From an uncultured Muribaculaceae bacterium (GTDB taxonomy: Bacteria > Bacteroidota > Bacteroidia > Bacteroidales > Muribaculaceae): 64,000 nucleotides of DNA. The number at the start of each line of letters is the position of its first letter. Positions within the stretch are counted from its first letter, which is position 1. Made by a program: the position numbers and the translations under genes. This document shows, piece after piece, positions 1,556 to 61,157 of this stretch. The notes below the pieces were generated by a model. That model was not told the origin of the DNA. It saw nothing but the letters and a program-made list of their open reading frames with translations, and did no database searches. The stretch covers positions 383 through 64,382 of the forward strand of contig CAZYEO010000001.1 of assembly GCA_964646495.1 (NCBI GenBank), given 5' to 3'.

Positions 1556-3745
<2,190 letters not shown>

Positions 3746-3895: not shown

Positions 3896-4717
3896 TTATA
3901 GATTTTTCGTATTCAAACCAACGATTCTGTATGATGCTGTGAGTAATGATTCCGGAATTATTGGAGTATCGATAGGGAAAGTGCGATGTCTCGTGAAAAT
4001 TTGTCCACTCTTATTGCTTTGCAATGCTCTAAGTATGGCTTTTGCTCCTTGTTTGGGAGAGCTGATGAAAGGGCGGAAAAATATATTTGCAATCGGGTCA
4101 TACCATTTGTTCATGGATATCATATCGCTGTTCACTATTCCCGGATCGGCACATTTTATTTGTACATTATCACCATATTTAGCATGTAGATATGCAGCAT
4201 AGGCAGTGAGCGCAAGTTTGCTACGTCCATAAGTGCCAAGTTGTGAAAATTGCTCTTTGGTTTCGTGGAGATGAATATCTTGAAATTTATGAATCTTTCG
4301 AGTTACGGAAATTGTGAAAACGATATTGGCATGTGGCACCACCATTGGGAGTAATAATTCCGTGAGTAACATTTGTGATAGATAATTTACACCGATAGTA
4401 GTTTCAAATCCATCTTGGGTGAGGGTGTATTGTGAACATTTTATGCCTGCATTATTTATGATTCCTTTTACCAAGAGATTACGCTTGCCGATTGATAATG
4501 CAAATTTGCGAATTGATTGAAAGGAATCGAGTGACAATAATTCGGGGAAAATATGTTGATTGCCTGTTTCTCGTATTATCTCATTGCATATTTTATTGCC
4601 CTTCTCCATGTCGCGACAACCCACAATCACCTTTTCATCATGTATTGCAAGTGAGCGAAGCACTTCGGTTCCGATAGCTCCGGTAGCACCTGTAATTATG
4701 TATACCCCTGTATTCAT
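3896..4717 (-). CDS. Short-chain dehydrogenase/reductase (SDR); candidate hydroxysteroid dehydrogenase
   Basis: 273 aa. It has a Rossmann motif ITGATGAIGTEV, NNAGI, and catalytic YGRSKLALTAY (YxxxK). It is the last gene of the four-gene minus-strand operon, 6 nt after the previous gene. Confidence 0.75.
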   Translation of the reverse strand: MNTGVYIITGATGAIGTEVLRSLAIHDEKVIVGCRDMEKGNKICNEIIRETGNQHIFPELLSLDSFQSIRKFALSIGKRNLLVKGIINNAGIKCSQYTLTQDGFETTIGVNYLSQMLLTELLLPMVVPHANIVFTISVTRKIHKFQDIHLHETKEQFSQLGTYGRSKLALTAYAAYLHAKYGDNVQIKCADPGIVNSDMISMNKWYDPIANIFFRPFISSPKQGAKAILRALQSNKSGQIFTRHRTFPIDTPIIPESLLTASYRIVGLNTKNL

Positions 4718-4723
4718 TAAAAA

Positions 4724-5527
4724 TTATTTGTCAAGAAGTTTGTGCTTTACAATAAGTCTTATTTTCGATGGCAGCATGGCGACAAAAACTATTGAAAATC
4801 TATTTATAAATCCATTGATGTATTGTTTCTTTTTTGCAAAAGTAGCCTTTAATGCTCCACGGACAAATTTTTGAGGAGTTACCAAAACTCCCAATTTTAC
4901 CCCCAATTGTTGAAGATTTTTGGGCAATCCAAATAGATCGGTAGCAATCCCTCCGGGACAAGCTACCGTTACCGATACACCAGAATCGCTCAATTCAAGT
5001 TGGATAGCTCTCGATAGTACCCTGATATATGCTTTTGTTGCTCCATACATTGAGATTCCGGGCATTGGCATCCAGCATGACATCGACGACATATTAAGAA
5101 TATATCCATGATTGCGTTTTGCCATTTCGCTGCCGAATATGTGACATAACTCAGTTACGGCACGTATATGAAGGTCAATAAATAGGTTTATTCTCTCTTG
5201 AGACATTTCTATTAATGCCTTGAACGCAAAAATGCCGGCATTATTAATAAGAATATCCACTATTAAATTGTTCTCTGTGCACCAATTTAATATATGTGTA
5301 GCAGCATTTGGTGTCGATAAATCAATATGGAGATATGAAACAGAAACATCATAATCATGCTCAATCTCCGATGATGTGAGTCTAAGCTCCTGTTCTTGAT
5401 TGCTCACAAGAATGAGATTCACACCATTTGCAGCGAGTTGGCGAGAAAATTCCTTTCCTATTCCCGAAGACCCACCTGTGATTAAAGCTGTAGATCCTTG
5501 CGGAATTTTGTTATTTATGATGTTCAT
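4724..5527 (-). CDS. Classical SDR oxidoreductase; candidate 3-hydroxysteroid dehydrogenase
   Basis: 267 aa. It has ITGGSSGIGKEF (TGxxxGxG), INNAGI and YGATKAYIRVL (YxxxK). Its start overlaps the upstream gene by 17 nt. Confidence 0.75.
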   Translation of the reverse strand: MNIINNKIPQGSTALITGGSSGIGKEFSRQLAANGVNLILVSNQEQELRLTSSEIEHDYDVSVSYLHIDLSTPNAATHILNWCTENNLIVDILINNAGIFAFKALIEMSQERINLFIDLHIRAVTELCHIFGSEMAKRNHGYILNMSSMSCWMPMPGISMYGATKAYIRVLSRAIQLELSDSGVSVTVACPGGIATDLFGLPKNLQQLGVKLGVLVTPQKFVRGALKATFAKKKQYINGFINRFSIVFVAMLPSKIRLIVKHKLLDK

Positions 5528-6755
5528 TATATTTCTGAATATTCTCTATCTCCTGGAGAATTTTTTTGGGTAGCTCCTCGGTGCAATGTTTGTGACAAGC
5601 CATTTCCATAGAATACATTCGAGCTATACAGTAGTTTACATGATCGCATCCGCAACGTTGCTCACCGGCTTTCATTCTATTAACGAAATCAGGTTCATTA
5701 ATCAGGGCGCGTCCTATTTGCACGAATTGAAATCCATCGTTGAGCACGGTATCTATGCCATCGCGCGACACACAACCTCCTACATATATTAAAGGCATAT
5801 CGGGTAGTGCTTTGTGAAATTTAAGAGCATCTTCTCGAAAATATAATTCTTTGAAATCACACTTAGGAATCATTATATTACCGAACATTTTAACCCCCTT
5901 ACTCAACCATTTTTTATCCATATAATAAGATAGTGTGGTAATTGGCATTTTTCCTCGCATTACATACATTGGGGCTTTACTCACAAATCCTCCGCTTAAC
6001 ACCAACGCATGTGCTCCAAGCTCTTGAAGCTCTTTTGCAACAGTGATACAATCATCAATTTCCATTCCACCCTTGAATCCATCGCGCATGTTCATCTTCA
6101 CCACAACTCCCATATCGGATTCGGCTGCCGACATCACTTCACTCATACACATGCGCATGAATTTCATTCTATTATCAAGCGATCCTCCATATTTATCTTT
6201 GCGCTTATTGGTGTAAGGCGACAAAAATTGGCTTATAAGATAACCATGCCCTGCATGAATTTCCACACAGTCAAAACCTGAATCACGAGCCATTCTCACG
6301 GCTTCGCCAAATGCTAAAGCGGTTTCGCGAATTTCAACATTTGTCATAGCGCGTGTAAATGTAGGTGCATATAAGTTGAATCGTCCCGATGGCGACCATG
6401 GAGTTTCTCCGATAATCTCCTTTTTAGACATATTACCGCAGTGCCCCAACTGAATGGATGCCTTAGCTCCACCTGCATGAATGGCATCGGTAACATCTCG
6501 CAGATCCCGTAATATATCTGGGCGTATCCATAATTGATGAGGGAATGAAAGTCCACTTCGCATCACTGCCGCATAAGCAACAGTGCTCATTCCTACTCCA
6601 CCTTGTGATACGGAAGAATGATAATCCAAAAGCATTTCAGATGGTCGGTTTTCATCGCACATACCTTCAAATGCTGCCGATCGTATCGTTCTATTGCGTA
6701 GCGTGATCGGTCCTATGTTGTTTTCAGTAAAAAGTAGAGATTTAGAATTATCCAT
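5511..6755 (-). CDS. Old-Yellow-Enzyme family NADH:flavin oxidoreductase with Cys-rich C-terminus; candidate 3-oxo-delta4-steroid 5-beta-reductase
   Basis: 414 aa. OYE signature HAGHGYLISQFLSPYTNKRKDKYGGSLDNR. The C-terminal cysteine cluster RCGCDHVNYC...ACHKHC resembles the Fe-S site of the 2,4-dienoyl-CoA reductase/BaiCD branch. The second FAD/NAD domain of that branch is absent. Confidence 0.7.
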   Translation of the reverse strand: MDNSKSLLFTENNIGPITLRNRTIRSAAFEGMCDENRPSEMLLDYHSSVSQGGVGMSTVAYAAVMRSGLSFPHQLWIRPDILRDLRDVTDAIHAGGAKASIQLGHCGNMSKKEIIGETPWSPSGRFNLYAPTFTRAMTNVEIRETALAFGEAVRMARDSGFDCVEIHAGHGYLISQFLSPYTNKRKDKYGGSLDNRMKFMRMCMSEVMSAAESDMGVVVKMNMRDGFKGGMEIDDCITVAKELQELGAHALVLSGGFVSKAPMYVMRGKMPITTLSYYMDKKWLSKGVKMFGNIMIPKCDFKELYFREDALKFHKALPDMPLIYVGGCVSRDGIDTVLNDGFQFVQIGRALINEPDFVNRMKAGEQRCGCDHVNYCIARMYSMEMACHKHCTEELPKKILQEIENIQKYNEHHK

Positions 6756-6783
6756 TTGATATAATAGAATTATAATTTTTGAA

Positions 6784-7554
6784 TTAATATATGCCCGGAA
6801 TTATGCTTTTTAGCTTCAGTGAAGTAAATTTTTCGCCAAATTTCTTGCAATAATGCTCATTTATTTTTTTTGCTCTTGGAGCAAGATTAGCAAATGTCCA
6901 CAATGCAAATACTGCACCTGCCCAGCTCCATGTGAGTATTGCAAATCCTATCCATTCCACAGTTTCGCCAAAATAATTTGCACTTGAAACCCATCGATAG
7001 AGTCCGCCACGAGGTATATAATGGCCGGTGTCACCCGGTTTGCGTAAGTTGCGGATTATGTGGTCGCTATGCCAATTAATACCCATGCCTGAAAAGAATA
7101 TAATAGTACCGATTATGAATTGCGGCGACCAAAGCCATTCCACTTGGTATTGATTGGGTGACGACACATAAAAAATCCATCCCCCTTGCATTAGAGCATT
7201 AAGGATATTGAATGTTACACCACTCAATATAATAGTAATAGGCATTCTGCTCTTGCCTTTTATTAATAAAGGAAAGATAAATGACCTGTAGATATAATGA
7301 ATCTGAAACAAGCATAGAAATATCAGCGGTACAACCTCCCACTTGCGATTGCTTTCAAGCCAGAGCCAGAGCATAACCACCACCACGGGAGATTCCATGA
7401 GCACCCAGCCGAGACGATTGCTAACCGAGAAACCCCATTTTGGTGTGTACATCATTCCATAGCCGGCTTTCACATAGTGTAATGCGATGAAGACTATTAT
7501 TGCTATGATGCTCATTGCAATCAGGAATATATTGAAGTACTCGAAATAAAACAT
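6784..7554 (-). CDS. 3-oxo-5-alpha-steroid 4-dehydrogenase (SRD5A-like steroid 5-alpha-reductase) family membrane protein
   Basis: 256 aa and polytopic. The C-terminal steroid-reductase domain motif is HSDHIIRNLRKPGDTGHYIPRGGLYRWVSSANYFGETVEWIGFAI. It is the first gene of the operon, and the ATG at 7554 was verified. Confidence 0.75.
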   Translation of the reverse strand: MFYFEYFNIFLIAMSIIAIIVFIALHYVKAGYGMMYTPKWGFSVSNRLGWVLMESPVVVVMLWLWLESNRKWEVVPLIFLCLFQIHYIYRSFIFPLLIKGKSRMPITIILSGVTFNILNALMQGGWIFYVSSPNQYQVEWLWSPQFIIGTIIFFSGMGINWHSDHIIRNLRKPGDTGHYIPRGGLYRWVSSANYFGETVEWIGFAILTWSWAGAVFALWTFANLAPRAKKINEHYCKKFGEKFTSLKLKSIIPGIY

Positions 7555-7590: not shown

Positions 7591-7598
7591 CAAAAATA
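7591..7598 (-). promoter_or_regulatory. Bacteroidetes -7 promoter box (TATTTTTG on minus strand) for the steroid-reductase operon
   Basis: Plus-strand CAAAAATA matches the reverse complement of the TAnnTTTG consensus, 37 nt upstream of the ATG at 7554. The call rests on the motif alone. Confidence 0.4.
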
Positions 7599-7716: not shown

Positions 7717-7724
7717 TATCTTTG
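7717..7724 (+). promoter_or_regulatory. Bacteroidetes -7 promoter box TATCTTTG
   Basis: It matches TAnnTTTG 49 nt upstream of the ATG at 7773. It lies inside the longer 7701 ORF, which argues for the 7773 start. Confidence 0.4.
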
Positions 7725-7772: not shown

Positions 7773-8729
7773 ATGAAGAAAATTTTAGCTATTGTTTATG
7801 TGATATTTATTGGCGCTAATGCATGGGGCTTAACGCTTGAGAAAATTAATTATGGTGACTTCAATTCATGGATTACAAGGCATATAAAAGAATCAAGCGT
7901 TATCGGGGGTAATACTCGTACGCTATATGAAATAGGACCTTCCGGAAATATATACGGCGATAAGCCATACGTAAATCAAGGTGGTTCACCTTGGGCTACA
8001 TCTAATGTGATGGCAAAGGTGATGGGAGTTACAAAAACAAGTAATGCCGTATACAGCGAACCACGCGAAGGTGATGGATATTGTGTTAAAATGTGTACGA
8101 TACTTGAAGAGGTAAAAGCACTGGGAATAATTAACATGAAAGTTCTTGTTTCTGGTAGTGTTTTTCTTGGGCGAGTGTTTGAACCGATAAGCAGTACAAA
8201 GAATCCATATTCTAAAATGGAAATGGGAGTGCCTTATACTAAACGCCCCGATTGCCTCGTATTTGATTATAAAGTTACGGTTCCTCCCGGTAATAGAATA
8301 TATTCCAGTGGATTTGGAACGCAAAAAACTATCCCCGGACAAGATTATGCCGAAGTATACGTACTTCTTCAACAACGTTGGGAAGATGCTCAGGGTAATT
8401 TGCATGCAAAACGTGTGGGAACAGGACGCCAGCGTTTCGGTAACACTGTGGCAAGATGGCAATCCGACTATAAAATGCCAATCTATTACGGTAATATAAC
8501 GAACCATGCCGGTTATAAACCATATATGGCACTAATCTCAAAAGAAAATTCATACTATGCTCGCAATAGTAAGGGTAAAATGGTTCCGGTAATAGAGGAA
8601 GGGTGGGCAGATGCCAATGCTAAACCCACTCACGTGATGATGATGGCATCTTCGGGATGTGGAACCGCATATACGGGGACAGTGGGAATGACCCTATGGA
8701 TAGATAATGTGGCTTTCGGATTTGAATAA
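7773..8729 (+). CDS. Secreted protein, probably PCMD (putative carbohydrate metabolism domain) family
   Basis: 318 aa from the ATG at 7773, with a signal peptide MKKILAIVYVIFIGANAWG. INYGDFNSWI and the overall pattern resemble Bacteroides PCMD-domain proteins. The family assignment is from memory only. Confidence 0.5.
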   Translation: MKKILAIVYVIFIGANAWGLTLEKINYGDFNSWITRHIKESSVIGGNTRTLYEIGPSGNIYGDKPYVNQGGSPWATSNVMAKVMGVTKTSNAVYSEPREGDGYCVKMCTILEEVKALGIINMKVLVSGSVFLGRVFEPISSTKNPYSKMEMGVPYTKRPDCLVFDYKVTVPPGNRIYSSGFGTQKTIPGQDYAEVYVLLQQRWEDAQGNLHAKRVGTGRQRFGNTVARWQSDYKMPIYYGNITNHAGYKPYMALISKENSYYARNSKGKMVPVIEEGWADANAKPTHVMMMASSGCGTAYTGTVGMTLWIDNVAFGFE

Positions 8730-51900: not shown

Positions 51901-54867
51901 GAAGAAAATGTCGGAACTCCTACAAAATTTGTAAATGATGGAGATAATACTACTCGTTGGGGAAGCAATCATAATGAAAATGAATGGATATATGTGGATC
52001 TTGGCGAAAATTGTTATATATCTAAAGTAAATATAAATTGGGAAGATGCCTATGGTAGTATATATGATATTCAAATAGCATCCGATGGTGCAACGACCGA
52101 ACAATTTAATGGAATATATGCGGGCACAACTGTGAATAAAACAGTGATTTCTGAAAAAGAATGGAAAACAGTTGTTTCAGTAACCGATAATGCCAGTAAA
52201 GGTGATAATACTCAAGTTATTGGCACAGAAGGAAGATATGTGAGGATGAAAGGAATAAAACGAGCTACAAATTATGGATACTCTATTAAAGAATTTGAGG
52301 TTTTTGGTATTCCTAAATCTTTACCTCAAGATGGAATAATTGGTATTGATATATTGTCTCCCGATTTTATGGATGAAGATGATTTTGCTATACTTGAAGC
52401 AAAGGCATATACTCTTGATGGAAAAGAGATAGCAAAAGATGTTGCATGGGAGTGCGAGGCTGAAAAAGCAACAATCGACGGAAACAAATTCGCACCATCT
52501 ACCTATGGCAGAATGGAAGTAACGGCAAAGTCATCAGATGGCTACTCGGCTGTGAAAAATATCATGGTAAATGAGGTGGTTAAACTTAAATCATTGAAAA
52601 TAACTCCCGAAAACACTCAAATCCTTCTTGGAGATGATATCGCTTATTCCATATCCGGTCTTAATCAATTCGGTGGAGAATATGAATTCAATACATCAAC
52701 ACTTGCAGTAGAAATAAGCAATGTTACGGATCCTGAAAATGTATTTGTGGTAACAGACGGAAGTGCATATTACCATATGTCAGACAATACTTTTGGCTCT
52801 ACAAAGGTAGGAGATTATAATCTTAAATTTGTAAGTGGAAATGTCGTTAAAAATGTGCTTATTGGAGTGGCAGATGTGTCAAAAGCCAACTTGGCACTTA
52901 ATCGTCAAGCCACAAGTTCCTCCTCATATGGGATAAATACTGCATCTAAAATTAATGATGGCGATGTACTGACACGATGGGAAAGTGATAAAGCTGATGG
53001 TGAATATGTAACTATCGATCTTGAATCACCTTTCGTGTTGGATCGCATGAATGTGATATGGGAAGCAGCTTATGCCACAAATTACCATGTGATGGCGTCG
53101 ATGAATGGTGACGCGTGGACTAATATTTTGACTAAAACAGATGGCGATGGTGCTACTGATTCTTTCACCATATCGCCTGTGCCTGCACAATATGTGCGTC
53201 TGATATGCGACAAACGTGCCGTAGTAGATTATGCGAATAGTATTTATGAATGGGAAATTTATGGTTTATCTCGATTCACAGGAGAAAATGACAATAAAGC
53301 ACCTGTAATTTCGGGGTTTAATATCCAGCCTGACGGAGCACAACTCACAATCAAAGCTAATGCAAACGATGATTCAGGATATATATTCTATACCCTTACA
53401 CGCACCACATCGGGCGTAATAAATGGTAATCCTGTGGAGGTGTCCTCTTACTCTAAGTCGGGCGAAGAAATTTCAATTACATCCGTGGGTTTGAAAGATA
53501 ATGTAGAATATATTTATACTCTTACAGCTACCGATCCATTTGGGAATAAAAGCTCCCGTGTTATAAAACATACTGCCGAGGTGTCAATAGATGGAGTGAA
53601 TCTTGCTCTTAATAAATATGCTTATGCTTCTTCGGCCGAGAACCCGGCTTTAGTAGCTCAATACGCTGTAGATGGTAACTCAGATACGCGTTGGGGAAGT
53701 GAATTTAATGATAATGAGTGGATAACAGTGGATCTTGCAGATGCATATCTGATTGATAACATCAAAATTAAGTGGAATAACTTTGCTTTTGCTACTAATT
53801 ATGATGTGTCAGTATCAATTGATGGTGACAAATTTGATAATATATATTCCAAAGAAGGATTCGTAGGAGGTGAGGAAAATATAGTTGTATCACCGACTGC
53901 TGCTCGATATATTAGGATTGTAGGGCTTAAACGTTCATCAATATATGGTACGAGTATTGATGAGCTCGAGGTATATGGTAGCGATATGTTGTTGAGCATC
54001 ACCGGTGCCGTGAGACACAATATACGCCTTGAGGGTCGTTGGGATAATAAAATATTTGCAGCATTAGATAGTAAAGATGCTACCAGTTATGATGTAACAT
54101 CCGTAAGCCAATTCCCGGAATCGATTACTACTCTAAATCCAAATTGTTTGATATATGTTCCATCTTCCTTTACATCGGCTCTTCATCCAAATATGGTTAA
54201 GGTAAATGAGGAAAATTACCAAGCCAATTCAATAGAATTATATGATGGATTTAATTTTGAATCTCTTCACGATATTTCTGTCGGAGGCGACATGGAATTT
54301 AATAAGTCTATGACAGGCGCTGTAATTCCAATAATTTTACCATTCCCTATAGAGGGAACGGAATCCATGAAAATAGCTTTACCCGATACTGAAAGAAATG
54401 ATGCAGTGTGTTTTTATTTGTCGGAAAATAATAAAAGTGAAGCCAATCAACCAATTGTATTGAAACTCACCACATCAATCAGTAAAATTAAAGGTGCAGG
54501 TAATATATTGTATCGTTCATCGACTTCAAGAATAAACCAAATCACCGGAACATATATGTATAAACCTGCTTTCGAGGGGGAATATCGTTGGCAAAACGGA
54601 GTTTTCGTGCGTCAAATATCTGGTGACGATTTTAACCCCTTTGAGTTGGTTGTGGAATATAGCTCAAATCTCTCCTCGGAATTACCTTTGAAGGTAACCG
54701 ATGTTCCAACAGGAATTGAAGAAACGAGAGAGGATATGAATGTTATTGTAGATGTTTACAATATTTGGGGGATTAAAATACGTGCAAAAATTCTGAAATC
54801 AGAAGCCTTCAAAGGTCTTCTTCCGGGTGTTTATATATCTAATGGTGAAAAAATAATAGTGCGGTAA
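48919..54867 (+). CDS. Giant GH81 endo-beta-1,3-glucanase with Big_2 and three F5/8 type C modules and T9SS C-terminal sorting domain
   Basis: 1982 aa with a signal peptide. GH81 motifs are LPTNDWWT, FNDHHFHYGYFIYSGALL and NGQESSSEAMQSWGAIYL. The three discoidin modules lie at about 51868-52310, 52891-53265 and 53601-53982 (each ALN+xxxSS...DG...TRW...W..VDL). The C-terminus is ...LPGVYISNGEKIIVR. Confidence 0.85.
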   Translation: MNLTKIIVGALLMSFSFGLSAQEPVQIGAASYAAYPPLYKGRTDAHNGDLSSLMQTKKLYINESDKMDDGQRRPLPTNDWWTGLINAPFADALWAYPQMVHPFEAGITINYPSYWNENGTEVKSNSNITIKGVKFTAVSAIAHDWHDWDVEMLMSGADGKQEMYVTLAHGIPFTWIELKEFSPRITFSSSAEYFDVEGNKLDISDILSYADNKITVKIGSDYYGIFVPDATGYSIKDGALALVFAETKKQFISVGMMKNISDLKIFAEYAYSVPRKTTVSWNFDEYKAELTTKWQIDAENLLDKAKPALVMQGFLPHAYKDALSKPSFQSESYLSPRGRLKIATPSSDNIYTFSYRFSGMLPYYAAPKENNAEANPYIKDRMTDLMTKYAKNGTFGNDTYWGGKGLTQMALNMTFAHEMGDEENFKLSKDKLKAKLIDWLTFTPGEEQVFFSYYPRWGSLVGHETSYDSDAFNDHHFHYGYFIYSGALLCMMDKDFRLNYGPMLRLIAKDYANWEHDDSQFPFLRTLDPWAGHSYAGGLGDNANSNGNGQESSSEAMQSWGAIYLLGVALNDNAMRDAGIFGWSTESRATAEYWFDRDQIHPEKEHNYDYTLYTSPYCTNLTSKGIGWWTWFSGDALWMHSIQWMPVSPCLNYLSQDLDFVKWDYDKMMSATAYKWFDAVGTNAPLANQSVGNVVLCYMERSNPDEAAKIFDRAYEENYGIATGIDTGHISYFTIQSHRTYGDIDFSVHADILTATAYKKKDGSMTYMAYNSYDTERMVRFFKDGTTVATVKVPARSLVAYGVAAVASSVVMESAEGLIMPPSAKSLLSVSVLDQYGATMDDVKYSFVVSDANLAFIDGKNILNINATATKGSKFTVTVKVNDDIKSVMDFTVNDIPVIASASITPQLKYLEKGDKATFTIDPIDQYGNFMNLDIDWTITKGGKKVSDSNVLDATEIGIYDIEANIGGKKYTQQVYLTPKFNNVALNKTAISSSEENVGTPTKFVNDGDNTTRWGSNHNENEWIYVDLGENCYISKVNINWEDAYGSIYDIQIASDGATTEQFNGIYAGTTVNKTVISEKEWKTVVSVTDNASKGDNTQVIGTEGRYVRMKGIKRATNYGYSIKEFEVFGIPKSLPQDGIIGIDILSPDFMDEDDFAILEAKAYTLDGKEIAKDVAWECEAEKATIDGNKFAPSTYGRMEVTAKSSDGYSAVKNIMVNEVVKLKSLKITPENTQILLGDDIAYSISGLNQFGGEYEFNTSTLAVEISNVTDPENVFVVTDGSAYYHMSDNTFGSTKVGDYNLKFVSGNVVKNVLIGVADVSKANLALNRQATSSSSYGINTASKINDGDVLTRWESDKADGEYVTIDLESPFVLDRMNVIWEAAYATNYHVMASMNGDAWTNILTKTDGDGATDSFTISPVPAQYVRLICDKRAVVDYANSIYEWEIYGLSRFTGENDNKAPVISGFNIQPDGAQLTIKANANDDSGYIFYTLTRTTSGVINGNPVEVSSYSKSGEEISITSVGLKDNVEYIYTLTATDPFGNKSSRVIKHTAEVSIDGVNLALNKYAYASSAENPALVAQYAVDGNSDTRWGSEFNDNEWITVDLADAYLIDNIKIKWNNFAFATNYDVSVSIDGDKFDNIYSKEGFVGGEENIVVSPTAARYIRIVGLKRSSIYGTSIDELEVYGSDMLLSITGAVRHNIRLEGRWDNKIFAALDSKDATSYDVTSVSQFPESITTLNPNCLIYVPSSFTSALHPNMVKVNEENYQANSIELYDGFNFESLHDISVGGDMEFNKSMTGAVIPIILPFPIEGTESMKIALPDTERNDAVCFYLSENNKSEANQPIVLKLTTSISKIKGAGNILYRSSTSRINQITGTYMYKPAFEGEYRWQNGVFVRQISGDDFNPFELVVEYSSNLSSELPLKVTDVPTGIEETREDMNVIVDVYNIWGIKIRAKILKSEAFKGLLPGVYISNGEKIIVR

Positions 54868-58387: not shown

Positions 58388-59593
58388 ATGAAGACTATTT
58401 TCTCAGAATATTACCCAATAAGCAAAGATGTCATTAATAATGCTTGGGACAAAGGTGTATTTTGCTATGACGCCAATGTTTTATTGAACTTATATAGGTA
58501 CTCCAATGAAACTCGAAATAAAATCTTCGAGAACATTGAATATTTTATAGGCAAAACTATAATGCCATATCAAGCTTGTTATGAGTATCACAAAAATAGA
58601 AGAAGCGTTGAGGATAGTTTATCAAATAGTTACGACGAAATAATAAAGGTTATTGAAAAAACCATTAATTCATTAGAGTCAGGAGACATTACTGGATATA
58701 GAAAACATTGTGCTTTAGATATTTATAAAGATATAATCAAACCAATAAAATTGACAGCAACAAAGGTAATTAAGAAAATTAATGATATAAAAAGTGATCA
58801 TCCTTCATTGCTAAATGCCTCGGAAATACACGAGAAAATCAGCCAACTATTCGATGGTAAAGTCTCAAATAAATTTCTCGAAGATGAACTGAAGAAGATA
58901 TATACGGAAGGCAAGATTAGATATGAAAAGAAGATTCCTCCTGGATTTGCAGACTATGATAACAAAAAGAACAAAGGTGAAAATAGCTTGTACGGAGATT
59001 TGATTATTTGGAAACACCTTATCGAAATAAGCAAGAATAAAAATTCAGATATTATTTTTGTTACAGATGATAGAAAAAAAGATTGGTGGGACATTCACCA
59101 TGGACAAACAAAAGGTGCGCTACCCGAATTATACAGTGAGTTCAAGGAACTTACATCACATAATATTTTAATATATTCGGTAGAGGACTATATGAAATAC
59201 GCTCCAGAACATTCAGAGATTGCAGTCCCTAAGAAAGTTATTAATGAAATTGAGGAGCTTAGAAAGGTTGACGAACGAAGAAAAGCCTATCTTGATTATG
59301 ATTCTCTCTCCAAAATAACGGAATACATAAATAAGCAAAATAGCGTTTGGGAGAATCTTAATAAACAAAATGAGGTTTTCAAAGCATTGAATAACTATAC
59401 TACGTTGACTGATTATTCAAAATCAATCGAAGAGTTCAATAAAACAATACAAAAGATTAACCCCAAGATTGAATATATCGAATTAATTGAAAATATGAAT
59501 AAATTCAATGCCGGTGAAACAATATGGGATAATATAAATTTCAAAAGAAAAAAGGATTTCTTTCATAACGTGGACGAAGATGATAATGAATAA
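58388..59593 (+). CDS. PIN-like domain (DUF4935-type) predicted nuclease with long helical C-terminal region
   Basis: 401 aa. The N-terminal PIN-like beta-strand with Asp is VFCYDANVLLNLY (D28). The conserved acidic cluster is IIFVTDDRKKDWW (D227/D228), after GDLIIWKHLIE. The C-terminal roughly 130 aa are Lys/Glu/Asn-rich and helical. The gene is very AT-rich. Confidence 0.65.
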   Translation: MKTIFSEYYPISKDVINNAWDKGVFCYDANVLLNLYRYSNETRNKIFENIEYFIGKTIMPYQACYEYHKNRRSVEDSLSNSYDEIIKVIEKTINSLESGDITGYRKHCALDIYKDIIKPIKLTATKVIKKINDIKSDHPSLLNASEIHEKISQLFDGKVSNKFLEDELKKIYTEGKIRYEKKIPPGFADYDNKKNKGENSLYGDLIIWKHLIEISKNKNSDIIFVTDDRKKDWWDIHHGQTKGALPELYSEFKELTSHNILIYSVEDYMKYAPEHSEIAVPKKVINEIEELRKVDERRKAYLDYDSLSKITEYINKQNSVWENLNKQNEVFKALNNYTTLTDYSKSIEEFNKTIQKINPKIEYIELIENMNKFNAGETIWDNINFKRKKDFFHNVDEDDNE

Positions 59594-59738
59594 CAAATCA
59601 AGGGCCGGTATAAGGGACGGAAATTTTGTTTATGATTGACATCCTCACGTTCCTGAATGAAAAATGCAAATCATATAATCACTTCAAAATGATTAAAATA
59701 TCAGTCAAATAAAGTCATTTGATTGCAAAAAGGAGCTA

Positions 59739-59838
59739 CCGTCCGCACCGCAGTGGAGAGAGAAGATGGACAACTTTACTTGAAAATAGTAAGTTGTCCA
59801 TCCTTTCTTTGTTTAATCCCTATCGAAATTGAGGATAA
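59739..59838. repeat. Right copy of the perfect 100-bp direct repeat (attR-like), carrying only the last 12 nt of tRNA-Asp
   Basis: It is identical to 56441-56540. It is preceded by non-tRNA sequence (aaggagcta). Confidence 0.95.
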
Positions 59839-60050
59839 GCCTGAAAAATATTAGCTTGAAAGATAATTAATCGCAATAATTTGCAAGATTTTGAATTATT
59901 ACCTGTATATTAGCCGTCCGACATATTTAATCGGTTAATTTGCTTGTTATGAGATTATAAACTGAATAGTTCTGAATACCCATTGCAAGGTTTTCTTGAG
60001 CTATTCAGTTTTGGGTTTTTATTTACGCAAAATATCCTGTATGCTTTGTG

Positions 60051-61157
60051 TTATAATTCGATTTTACTCAATGGTAGATTCCATGCTTTTGCCACTGCCG
60101 GGAATACTACTTTTCCTTCAACGATATTAAGTCCTTGTTCGAGAGCTTTATCCTCTTTGCATGCTTGCCGCCATCCTTTATTGGCTAATTTTATTGCATA
60201 AGGAAGTGTGGCATTGTCGAGTGCTAAAGTAGATGTTTGTGGCACAGCTCCAGGAATATTGGCTACACAATAATGAATCACGCCGTCTATTTCAAATGTT
60301 GGATTTGAATGTGTGGTAGGGTGCGATGTTTCAAAACATCCGCCTTGGTCTATTGCCACATCGACCATTACCGATCCTTTTTGGATGAGTTTCAGCATGT
60401 CTCTTGTGATAAGATGAGGAGCTTTTGCTCCGGGAATGAGTACTGAGCCTACAACTATATCCGTGTCGGGAAGCTCTTCACGTATGTTGTGATCTGATGA
60501 GAATAGGGTTGTTATATTTGGGGGTACAATCTCGGCAATGTATCTGAGTCGAGGCAATGAAATATCTGTGATTACTACGCGAGCTCCCATTCCTGCTGCA
60601 ATAATTGCAGCGTTATAGCCCACTACGCCGGCTCCAAGTACCAAAACTTTGGCAGGTTTCACCCCCGGTACTCCACCGATAAGTTTTCCTTTGCCTCCAT
60701 TTGGTTTTTCGAGAAACATTGCTCCAGCTTGTATTGACATTCGTCCTGCTACTTCACTCATCGGGATAAGCAGCGGTAGGGCGTTGTCGGGGGTGCGCAC
60801 TGTTTCGTATGCCAAGCACACAGCTCCGCTTTTGATCATTGCCTTTGTAAGCTCCTCGTCGGATGCGAAATGGAAGTATGTGAAAATGAGTTGATCTTTT
60901 TTTATCAGATTATATTCCTCTTTAATAGGTTCTTTTACCTTCAGAATCATTTCTGCTGTATCATACACATCTTTTATTGATGGGAGAATTGTTGCTCCTG
61001 CTTTTTCATATTCACTGTCTGTAAAACCACTGTTTTCCCCGGCAGTGTGTTGTACATACACGCAATGACCGTTTCTTACAAGTTCGGCAACACCACTTGG
61101 AGTTGCAGAAACACGATTCTCATTGTTTTTAATCTCTTTGGGAATTCCGATTTTCAT
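60051..61157 (-). CDS. ald: Alanine dehydrogenase
   Basis: 368 aa. It starts MKIGIPKEIKNNENRVSATP and has the NAD motif VLVLGAGVVGYNAA. Length and pattern are typical of Ald. Confidence 0.92.
   Translation of the reverse strand: MKIGIPKEIKNNENRVSATPSGVAELVRNGHCVYVQHTAGENSGFTDSEYEKAGATILPSIKDVYDTAEMILKVKEPIKEEYNLIKKDQLIFTYFHFASDEELTKAMIKSGAVCLAYETVRTPDNALPLLIPMSEVAGRMSIQAGAMFLEKPNGGKGKLIGGVPGVKPAKVLVLGAGVVGYNAAIIAAGMGARVVITDISLPRLRYIAEIVPPNITTLFSSDHNIREELPDTDIVVGSVLIPGAKAPHLITRDMLKLIQKGSVMVDVAIDQGGCFETSHPTTHSNPTFEIDGVIHYCVANIPGAVPQTSTLALDNATLPYAIKLANKGWRQACKEDKALEQGLNIVEGKVVFPAVAKAWNLPLSKIEL

Follow-up and report, generated by a model that had tools for sequence, protein, structure and literature searches.

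What do four closely packed minus-strand genes encoding a membrane reductase, a flavoenzyme and two SDRs do together, and is their combination new? We addressed this for a locus in a 64,000-nt stretch of DNA (the window) from an uncultured bacterium that probably belongs to the Muribaculaceae. The genes and the candidate promoter elements are listed below.

7554-3896, minus strand: the four genes as a block, in transcription order from the 5AR to SDR type B
7591..7598, minus strand: candidate -7 promoter box of Bacteroidetes type, TATTTTTG, lying 37 nt before the start codon of the 5AR gene (pattern match)
6784..7554, minus strand: SRD5A1/2-type membrane steroid 5-alpha-reductase (5AR), 256 aa; PF02544 Steroid_dh, E 2.7e-43
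5511..6755, minus strand: short OYE flavoenzyme of the '5BR' type, 414 aa, 46.5 kDa; PF00724 Oxidored_FMN, E 2.9e-53
4724..5527, minus strand: classical SDR (type A), 267 aa; adh_short E 3.6e-42, with TGGSSGIG, NNAG and YGATK
3896..4717, minus strand: PRK06197-like SDR (type B), 273 aa; adh_short E 1.8e-19, PRK06197 E 3.6e-32
7717-7724: -7 box of the PCMD gene itself, TATCTTTG (pattern match)
7773..8729, plus strand: exported PCMD-domain protein with signal peptide, 318 aa; PF13201, E 2.4e-24

Gene layout, promoter elements and synteny

Along the minus strand the genes follow each other in the order 5AR, OYE, SDR type A, SDR type B, with a gap of 28 nt between 5AR and OYE, a 17-nt overlap of OYE and SDR type A and a gap of 6 nt between the SDRs; ORF positions and spacing agree with the four-gene layout described in the initial annotation. 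A sigma-70 promoter scan was set aside: it gave 19 matches, with 19.3 expected, and that model is not applicable to Bacteroidetes. We used the TAnnTTTG box instead. TATTTTTG is the sole minus-strand match to this pattern between the operon and the divergent PCMD gene. The operon itself contains a single further match on this strand, at 4837-4844, inside the third gene (SDR type A), and the scan found no -7 box between operon genes.

To place this arrangement in context, we surveyed the loci of the 80 nearest species (P. merdae and Phocaeicola are not among them), 66 of which have enough downstream sequence. All four genes (5AR-OYE-SDR_A-SDR_B) lie on one strand in 35 of these 66 loci, while 16 have 5AR-OYE-SDR_A and 5 have 5AR-OYE-SDR_B; homologues of SDR type A (33-61% identity) fill the third position in 51. 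Carriers of the four-gene form include the cultured Gabonibacter massiliensis, Alistipes hominis and Heminiphilus faecis as well as many Muribaculaceae. The initial annotation had pointed to synteny in related genomes as a check on its reading, and the co-directional order 5AR, OYE, SDR is indeed conserved across Bacteroidales families. Judged by this sequence comparison, with the order kept in 35 of 66 loci, chance does not explain the four-gene arrangement.

The same data bear on whether the genes are merely neighbours, with SDR type B, for example, belonging with the downstream GH97 gene. The absence of SDR type B from 16 of the 66 related clusters would fit separate units. However, only 6 nt separate it from SDR type A, the spaces between the operon genes are free of -7 boxes while GH97 has two of its own within a 162-nt spacer, and SDR_A-SDR_B follow 5AR-OYE in more than half of the loci, compared with a GH97 match in 1 of 80 (27% identity). 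We consider separate units extremely improbable and treat the four genes as one operon below.

The steroid 5-alpha-reductase and the short flavoenzyme

Searches against the PDB gave strong matches of 5AR to bacterial SRD5A (PbSRD5A, 7C83; 1.6e-53) and human SRD5A2 (7BW1; 1.1e-38), and merely 5.8e-5 for an enoyl-CoA reductase (TECR) structure. Residues E54, Y87, N160, D164, R171, E197, R227 and Y235 are invariant among 12 Bacteroidales homologues. E54 and Y87 align with E57 and Y91 of human SRD5A2, the catalytic pair in its structure, and the NADPH-site residues are invariant too. The features of the SRD5A1/2 subfamily (about 255 aa, full-length similarity and the Glu/Tyr pair for the 3-ketone) are all present; length, full-length alignment, catalytic Glu/Tyr and NADPH residues are common to the window's 5AR, SRD5A2 and PbSRD5A. 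Unlike these two enzymes, the window's 5AR shares its operon with a flavoenzyme and SDRs, and its presumed substrate is a bile-acid enone instead of testosterone or progesterone.

PF02544 also spans polyprenol and enoyl-CoA reductases, and 5AR additionally gives weak DUF1295 and PEMT matches, which could point to a cluster unconnected with steroids, consisting of a polyprenol/enoyl-lipid reductase plus an OYE and SDRs that act on fatty-acyl or generic enones. Membership in a polyprenol-reductase-like family had been named in the initial annotation as the outcome that would speak against a steroid role; the matches instead fall to steroid reductases, at about 1e-53 and 1e-38 versus 6e-5 for the enoyl-CoA reductase. 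In addition, 5AR is as long as SRD5A1/2 (256 aa), it retains both residues that correspond to the E and Y with which SRD5A2 binds the steroid ketone, and clusters of this type have been validated with bile acids, which makes a non-steroid function very unlikely. As a predicted steroid 5-alpha-reductase, 5AR would have functional counterparts in BaiP and BaiJ, which are soluble flavoproteins. These Firmicutes enzymes have the same outcome (3-oxo-delta4 to 3-oxo-5-alpha bile acid), but their protein family is unrelated to the SRD5A type (Lee et al. 2022, PMC9645264).

The OYE comprises an FMN barrel followed by a Cys-rich tail. The NCBIfam BaiCD model aligns with its N-terminal half only (model positions 4-261 of 642 with residues 8-264) and, at 4e-49, stays far under the model cut-off; assignment to the short-form bilirubin reductase BilR (NF045592) was rejected, since the score is 111 bits and the cut-off 425. 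The AF2 model of the OYE (pLDDT 87.5) obtained its best query coverage with 2-naphthoyl-CoA reductase (NCR, 6QKR), E. coli FadH (1PS9) and trimethylamine dehydrogenase (TMADH, 2TMD), in each case with the N-terminal domain only. TMq values against Fe-S OYE structures were 0.76-0.79 and TMt values 0.44-0.50, the matches spanning about half of the 660-730-aa targets. Thus the N-terminal domain of the class that comprises BaiCD/BaiH and these three enzymes superposes on the barrel and Cys-rich segment of the OYE, whereas the window's protein ends at residue 414 and lacks the FAD/NAD(P)H domains of approximately 250-300 aa. The OYE active-site motif H167-x-x-H170-G-Y172, C106, C370, H372, C376 and C387 are conserved in at least 98% of 121 homologues; residue 368 is Cys in 69% of them and otherwise Ser or Ala. 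The family keeps three of the four cysteines of canonical Fe-S OYEs (C370, C376 and C387) with the first (C368) variable, and the protein is a putative Fe-S flavoenzyme.

The short flavin reductase had initially been singled out as what differs in this operon, a view that does not hold. The OYE belongs to a very large Bacteroidales family of uniformly short proteins (about 410 aa). Lengths range from 396 to 422 aa in the listed top 120 of over 8000 scored homologues, every syntenic locus in related Bacteroidales has the short form, and validated Bacdor_03090 is of matching size at approximately 45.3 kDa (a 405-aa protein has 45.1 kDa). From the homologue lengths and the size of Bacdor_03090 it follows that the short OYE is the characterised form, and an OYE without the reductase domain is the norm for this cluster type. 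The caution that had been attached to its substrate range is fair, but holds for any uncharacterised orthologue.

The two SDRs and the published isoalloLCA cluster

SDR type A has the full classical SDR motif set (TGxxxGxG, NNAG, Ser/Tyr-x3-Lys). SDR type B has NNAG and YGRSK, and its glycine motif, TGATGAIG, is one residue shorter than TGxxxGxG. No specific relative of SDR type A was found in the PDB, where the SDR neighbours are generic only, and we dropped PDB neighbours as a guide to SDR specificity for this reason. As a human-gut proxy we used a metagenomic three-gene cluster, found in a homology search that started from the 5AR of a MAG labelled Parabacteroides; the proteins of this cluster have 256, 405 and 285 aa (29.9, 45.1 and 31.6 kDa). 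Identities are 59.6% for 5AR, 64% for OYE and 33% for SDR type B, the last over 243 aa (E 1e-33); SDR type A matches the 285-aa SDR over 88 aa only. SDR type B thus appears to be the homologue of the three-gene-cluster SDR and hence a candidate 3-beta-HSDH; its low identity of 33% and its atypical glycine motif count against this reading.

In the published isoalloLCA cluster, genes for 5AR, 5BR and 3-beta-HSDH are adjacent in this order (Li et al. 2021, bioRxiv 10.1101/2021.01.08.425963; likewise the review PMC10382948), and the adjacency and broad Bacteroidales distribution are backed by PMC10382948 and PMC10942478. Li et al. showed that Bacdor_03090 converts 3-oxoLCA to 3-oxo-delta4-LCA, Bacdor_03091 converts the latter to 3-oxoalloLCA, and Bacdor_03089 produces isoalloLCA from 3-oxoalloLCA; deletion of Parmer_04016-18 led to loss of isoalloLCA production. 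The tagged 5AR, 5BR and 3-beta-HSDH proteins had masses of 28.2, 45.3 and 31.7 kDa. Strains with an extra SDR ahead of the 3-beta-HSDH homologue still made isoalloLCA, and SDR type A is probably this insert, termed 'putative 17-beta-HSDH' by the same authors. They counted as homologues those proteins that exceed 50% identity and 80% coverage in comparison with their counterparts from B. dorei, P. merdae or B. vulgatus; with our proxy cluster in place of these named references, 5AR and OYE lie above the 50% threshold and the SDR below it.

Protein families, gene order, sizes, tight packing and wide Bacteroidales spread are common to the window's operon and Bacdor_03091/90/89, Parmer_04016-18 and Bvu_1964-66, and the four-gene form mentioned by Li et al. 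is the one that we find here. The differences are the uncultured, probably Muribaculaceae host, an activity that is predicted, the divergent candidate 3-beta-HSDH (33% identity to the three-gene-cluster SDR) and the adjoining divergent PCMD-domain gene. Gene set and order bear out the initial view that the genes belong with the 5AR/5BR/3-beta-HSDH (isoalloLCA-type) cluster of gut Bacteroidales, and on sequence grounds the operon is one more copy, in a four-gene variant, of an already described isoalloLCA / A-ring cluster. Sato et al. reportedly described the same cluster in 2021.

We consider it likely that the four genes constitute a single operon for A-ring isomerisation and reduction of 3-oxo steroids, most probably 3-oxo-lithocholate-type secondary bile acids. 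If the proteins are orthologues of the named validated enzymes, the short FMN (and probably Fe-S) OYE would first work in the dehydrogenase direction, as modelled on the validated B. dorei enzyme, and convert a kinked 3-oxo-5-beta steroid to the 3-oxo-delta4 enone. The SRD5A-type reductase in the inner membrane would then transfer hydride from NADPH to the alpha face of C5, giving the flat 3-oxo-5-alpha (allo) steroid, the 3-ketone of which would be reduced by one or both SDRs, with SDR type B as the candidate 3-beta-HSDH and SDR type A as a putative extra hydroxysteroid-type dehydrogenase.

The same enzymology (5-beta to delta4 to 5-alpha, and ketoreduction) could natively serve other 3-oxo steroids, such as host steroid hormones or 3-oxo-delta4 steroids derived from cholesterol or phytosterols. 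Relatives of the cluster are also present in MAGs of non-gut Bacteroidales from anaerobic digesters, and bile acids therefore need not be the sole or native substrate. No bile salt hydrolase was detected in the genome (96% complete), the extra SDR is called '17-beta-HSDH-like' by Li et al., and elsewhere the PCMD neighbour is associated with a sulfotransferase cluster arranged like the cholesterol-sulfotransferase cluster of B. thetaiotaomicron (PMC9417993). However, the activities published for clusters of this type all concern derivatives of lithocholate or deoxycholate, and the sequence favours no substrate over another. Overall, other native substrates seem rather unlikely, and we retain 3-oxo bile acids as the probable ones.

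Among the effects of isoalloLCA and related allo-bile acids are inhibition of Gram-positive pathogens and promotion of regulatory T cells. Given this bioactivity, knowing which lineages bear the cluster helps to read microbiome data. With the window's copy, an uncultured species, probably of the Muribaculaceae, joins the carriers, and the understanding of the pathway is unchanged; the sole thread that could lead towards something new is the occurrence of an exported PCMD-domain protein beside two steroid-modifying clusters.

The divergent PCMD-domain neighbour

Among 80 related loci, 7-8 have an orthologue of the PCMD gene next to or within the 5AR cluster, at several different positions. In 15 of the 25 genomes with both a PCMD orthologue and a steroid-sulfotransferase-like Sulfotransfer_3 gene, the former comes immediately after the latter. 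The order in the sulfotransferase clusters is CysQ-like, anion transporter, CysC, CysD, CysN, sulfotransferase, the same layout as in the cholesterol sulfotransferase cluster BT_0411-BT_0416 of B. thetaiotaomicron (Le et al. 2022, PMC9417993), and the PCMD orthologue follows at the end. In the literature searched we found no mention of the gene after BT_0416. The window's genome is without a BT_0416-like sulfotransferase.

In a sample of 400 genomes, 79% of those with a 5AR or sulfotransferase also have the PCMD orthologue, versus 1.4% of those with neither. An unrelated PCMD-domain paralogue, taken as a control in the same sample, shows nearly the same skew (44% versus 0.9%), so co-occurrence is not specific, and we retained physical adjacency alone. 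This adjacency makes the PCMD protein a possible accessory of the 5AR cluster. More tentatively, its subfamily might handle extracytoplasmic sterols or steroids, binding or delivering them, for instance, and be attached to whichever steroid-modifying cluster a given member of the Bacteroidales carries.

Structure prediction for the PCMD protein (AlphaFold, 7 sequences) reached a pLDDT of 46.5, and profile matches are weak and limited to uncharacterised structural-genomics entries labelled 'putative glycoside hydrolase'. The PCMD gene adjoins steroid-modifying clusters of two different types: it is commoner after the sulfotransferase and is sometimes located beside or inside the 5AR cluster.

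Operon layout and the 5-alpha-reductase

The four closely packed minus-strand ORFs proposed in the initial annotation were recovered with the positions and spacings it had described: genes 1 and 2 are 28 nt apart, genes 2 and 3 overlap by 17 nt, and 6 nt separate genes 3 and 4. The features are as follows:

7598-7591, minus: Bacteroidetes-type -7 box TATTTTTG, 37 nt upstream of the first ATG of gene 1
7554-6784, minus: gene 1, SRD5A-type 5-alpha-reductase (5AR), 256 aa; Steroid_dh PF02544, 2.7e-43 (Pfam)
6755-5511, minus: gene 2, OYE, 414 aa; Oxidored_FMN PF00724, 2.9e-53 (Pfam)
5527-4724, minus: gene 3, SDR_A, 267 aa; adh_short, 3.6e-42 (Pfam)
4717-3896, minus: gene 4, SDR_B, 273 aa; adh_short, 1.8e-19 (Pfam)

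Given the -7 box before gene 1, and since a 162-nt spacer holds separate -7 boxes for the GH97 gene downstream, genes 1-4 look like a single transcription unit. The minus-strand neighbours downstream are the GH97 gene (glycoside hydrolase, 1556-3733), a gene for an HTH-cupin regulator (811-1356) and, at 1-783, the beginning of an AMP-binding enzyme; among 80 related loci, the sole match to these neighbours was a weak GH97 at 27% identity (locus L089).

Gene 1 gives full-length alignments with the structures of a bacterial steroid 5-alpha-reductase (7C83, 1.6e-53) and human SRD5A2 (7BW1, 1.1e-38). E54 and Y87 align with Glu57 and Tyr91, the catalytic pair of SRD5A2, and both are invariant in 12 Bacteroidales homologues, as are the NADPH-site residues N160, D164, R171, E197, R227 and Y235. 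A non-steroid affiliation, for example with polyprenol reductases, would have counted against the initial annotation. Because the steroid 5-alpha-reductase structures match far better than enoyl-CoA reductase (5.8e-5 only), and because the key residues are invariant, such a polyprenol-reductase or generic reading of gene 1 is unsupported.

Relation to the characterised isoalloLCA cluster

In the study of Li et al. 2021 (bioRxiv 10.1101/2021.01.08.425963; LCA, lithocholate), the "5-beta-reductase" was found by BLASTP with BaiCD. There, Bacdor_03090 (tagged protein, ~45.3 kDa) converts 3-oxoLCA to 3-oxo-delta4-LCA, Bacdor_03091 (~28.2 kDa) converts 3-oxo-delta4-LCA to 3-oxoalloLCA, and purified Bacdor_03089 (~31.7 kDa) converts 3-oxoalloLCA to isoalloLCA; deletion of Parmer_04016-18 led to the loss of all three products. 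Sato et al. 2021, as relayed in a review (PMC10382948), found 5AR in one cluster with a predicted 3-beta-HSDH and an NADH:flavin oxidoreductase resembling BaiCD/BaiH; disruption of the P. merdae 5AR blocked allo-LCA derivatives.

As a stand-in for the named reference proteins we used a very abundant human-gut three-gene cluster (loci L094-L097), whose proteins of 256, 405 and 285 aa correspond to 29.9, 45.1 and 31.6 kDa; the 5AR and OYE of the window are 59.6% and 64% identical to its members. The gene set, order and sizes fit those of Li et al. 2021, bearing out the initial assignment to the gut 5AR/5BR/3-beta-HSDH group. Judged by protein families, order, sizes and the human-gut proxy, the locus appears to belong to the Bacteroidota 5AR-5BR-3-beta-HSDH cluster, and the proxy, sizes and synteny suggest that the window proteins are orthologous to the validated ones. 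The operon would then be one more instance of an already described cluster.

By its motifs, gene 3 is a typical classical SDR; gene 4 is an SDR that resembles PRK06197 and has NNAG and YxxxK, with a glycine motif one residue shorter. The SDR of the human-gut cluster is 33% identical to gene 4 over 243 aa and matches gene 3 over 88 aa, indicating at sequence level that gene 4, not gene 3, is its homologue. Since gene 4 would thus fill the place of the three-gene cluster's SDR, the window is best described as carrying the four-gene variant, with gene 3 as a putative inserted extra SDR and gene 4 as the candidate 3-beta-HSDH-type SDR.

The OYE gene is single-copy in the whole genome. The NCBIfam BaiCD model matches gene 2 with its N-terminal half only (4e-49, positions 4-261 of 642), and the OYE active-site motif H167-x-x-H170-G-Y172 is kept. 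In a confident AlphaFold model (pLDDT 87.5), query coverage is best against 2-naphthoyl-CoA reductase, FadH and trimethylamine dehydrogenase, in each case with the N-terminal domain (TMq 0.76-0.79). As the superpositions are confined to this domain and span approximately half of these 660-730-aa targets, gene 2 is predicted to consist of the FMN/Cys-rich portion of an Fe-S OYE-class enzyme and to lack the FAD/NAD(P)H domains. A full-length BaiCD/FadH-type enzyme is ruled out by the absence of the C-terminal domains, and BilR was rejected as well, the bilirubin-reductase N-domain model scoring 111 bits against a cut-off of 425 (NCBIfam). The Cys-rich tail maps as follows:

approximately 5595-5654, minus: Cys-rich tail, residues 368-387 of gene 2 (protein P0002), putative Fe-S cysteines

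Across 121 homologues, the tail residues C370, H372, C376 and C387 and the barrel residue C106 are invariant, while the first canonical Fe-S cysteine, C368, is Cys in 69% and Ser or Ala in 31%; this first cysteine moves one position across lineages (CxC in gene 2, CxxC in the human-gut cluster).

The initial annotation had singled out the short flavin reductase as the distinguishing feature of the locus, which does not hold. The best 120 of more than 8000 scored OYE relatives (64-75% identical; Muribaculaceae, Barnesiella, Bacteroidaceae and others) are 396-422 aa long, and the biochemically validated enzyme is itself the short form, as Bacdor_03090 has a size close to that of the human-gut 405-aa protein.

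Synteny, distribution and substrate

Species-representative genomes were scanned with a 5AR alignment, and the four window proteins were mapped onto the 80 nearest loci, 66 of which had enough downstream sequence for synteny counts. In line with the synteny check suggested at the outset, the order 5AR-OYE-SDR_A-SDR_B recurs on one strand at 35 of the 66, including in the named cultured species Gabonibacter massiliensis (Odoribacteraceae), Alistipes hominis and Heminiphilus faecis. 5AR-OYE-SDR_A accounts for 16 loci, mostly labelled Alistipes or Rikenellaceae, 5AR-OYE-SDR_B for 5 and 5AR alone for 7. The best matches to the window are Muribaculaceae records, so the MAG it comes from probably belongs to this family, within which 5AR is patchy (10 of 24 other genomes searched). 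Adjacent cluster genes are present in most cultured human gut Bacteroidales (PMC10942478).

By analogy with the validated orthologous system, the OYE would dehydrogenate a 3-oxo-5-beta steroid to the delta4-enone, the membrane reductase would carry out NADPH-dependent 5-alpha reduction of this enone, and an SDR would reduce the 3-ketone. The main rival keeps this chemistry with steroid hormones, or with enones derived from cholesterol or phytosterols, as substrates. It is favoured by cluster relatives in digester MAGs (e.g., L073), by the second SDR, which has no assigned role, and by the bile salt hydrolase search (PF02275), which found none in the whole 2.4-Mb, 96%-complete MAG. Between bile-acid and other steroid substrates, the sequence does not discriminate.

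A second group of SRD5A-like proteins, distant at 35-43% identity, is present in 35 other genomes of an order-wide sample of 400 evenly drawn Bacteroidales genomes. A distant sulfotransferase-like protein (32-43% identity) occurs with this group in 15 of its 16 genomes; in the four genomes whose positions were compared (G146, G233, G304 and G343), the two genes sit on separate contigs, and the pairing is probably a clade effect.

The divergent PCMD-domain gene

A modest upside comes from a neighbouring gene that is divergent to the operon, at a distance of 218 bp and behind a -7 box of its own. Our literature search found no mention of this PCMD-domain gene.

7773-8729, plus: exported PCMD-domain protein, 318 aa, signal peptide; PF13201, 2.4e-24
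L132, 8975-16452: one of the loci in which PCMD orthologues recur, with L078, L076, L042 and L086

Orthologues (39-56% identity) lie beside or inside the 5AR cluster at seven or eight of the 80 nearest loci in varied arrangements: divergent upstream (L025, L041, L059), upstream on the same strand (L042), between the two SDRs (L078) or after the last SDR (L076, L086). In the order-wide sample, 46 of the 400 genomes have an orthologue. At the 29 best loci, whose positions were examined, it adjoins 5AR at 3, comes right after a co-directional Sulfotransfer_3 gene at 10 and stands alone among housekeeping genes at 16. The Sulfotransfer_3 gene that precedes it closes a PAPS-synthesis cluster; one full locus reads, in order, CysQ-like, anion transporter, CysC, CysD, CysN, sulfotransferase and PCMD, which is the layout of the published B. 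thetaiotaomicron cholesterol sulfotransferase cluster BT_0411-0416 (PMC9417993). By coordinates across the 400 genomes, the gene after the sulfotransferase is PCMD in 15 of 25 genomes with both, and PCMD adjoins 5AR in 3 of 27 genomes with both.

Genomes with 5AR, the sulfotransferase or both carry PCMD in 41 of 52 cases, those with neither in 5 of 348. However, an unrelated PCMD-domain paralogue, taken as a control, has nearly the same skew (23/52 versus 3/348), so the co-occurrence is a clade or habitat effect and was dropped as specific evidence. What remains is the repeated physical linkage of the PCMD gene to two different steroid-modifying clusters. A dedicated sterol-handling role for its product is a tentative and rather unlikely reading.

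A search of the whole 96%-complete MAG for a BT_0416-like sulfotransferase found none. In a genome of another family (G274, contig C5), a 5AR (51938-52687) and a BT_0416-like sulfotransferase (58976-60073) lie approximately 6 kb apart.
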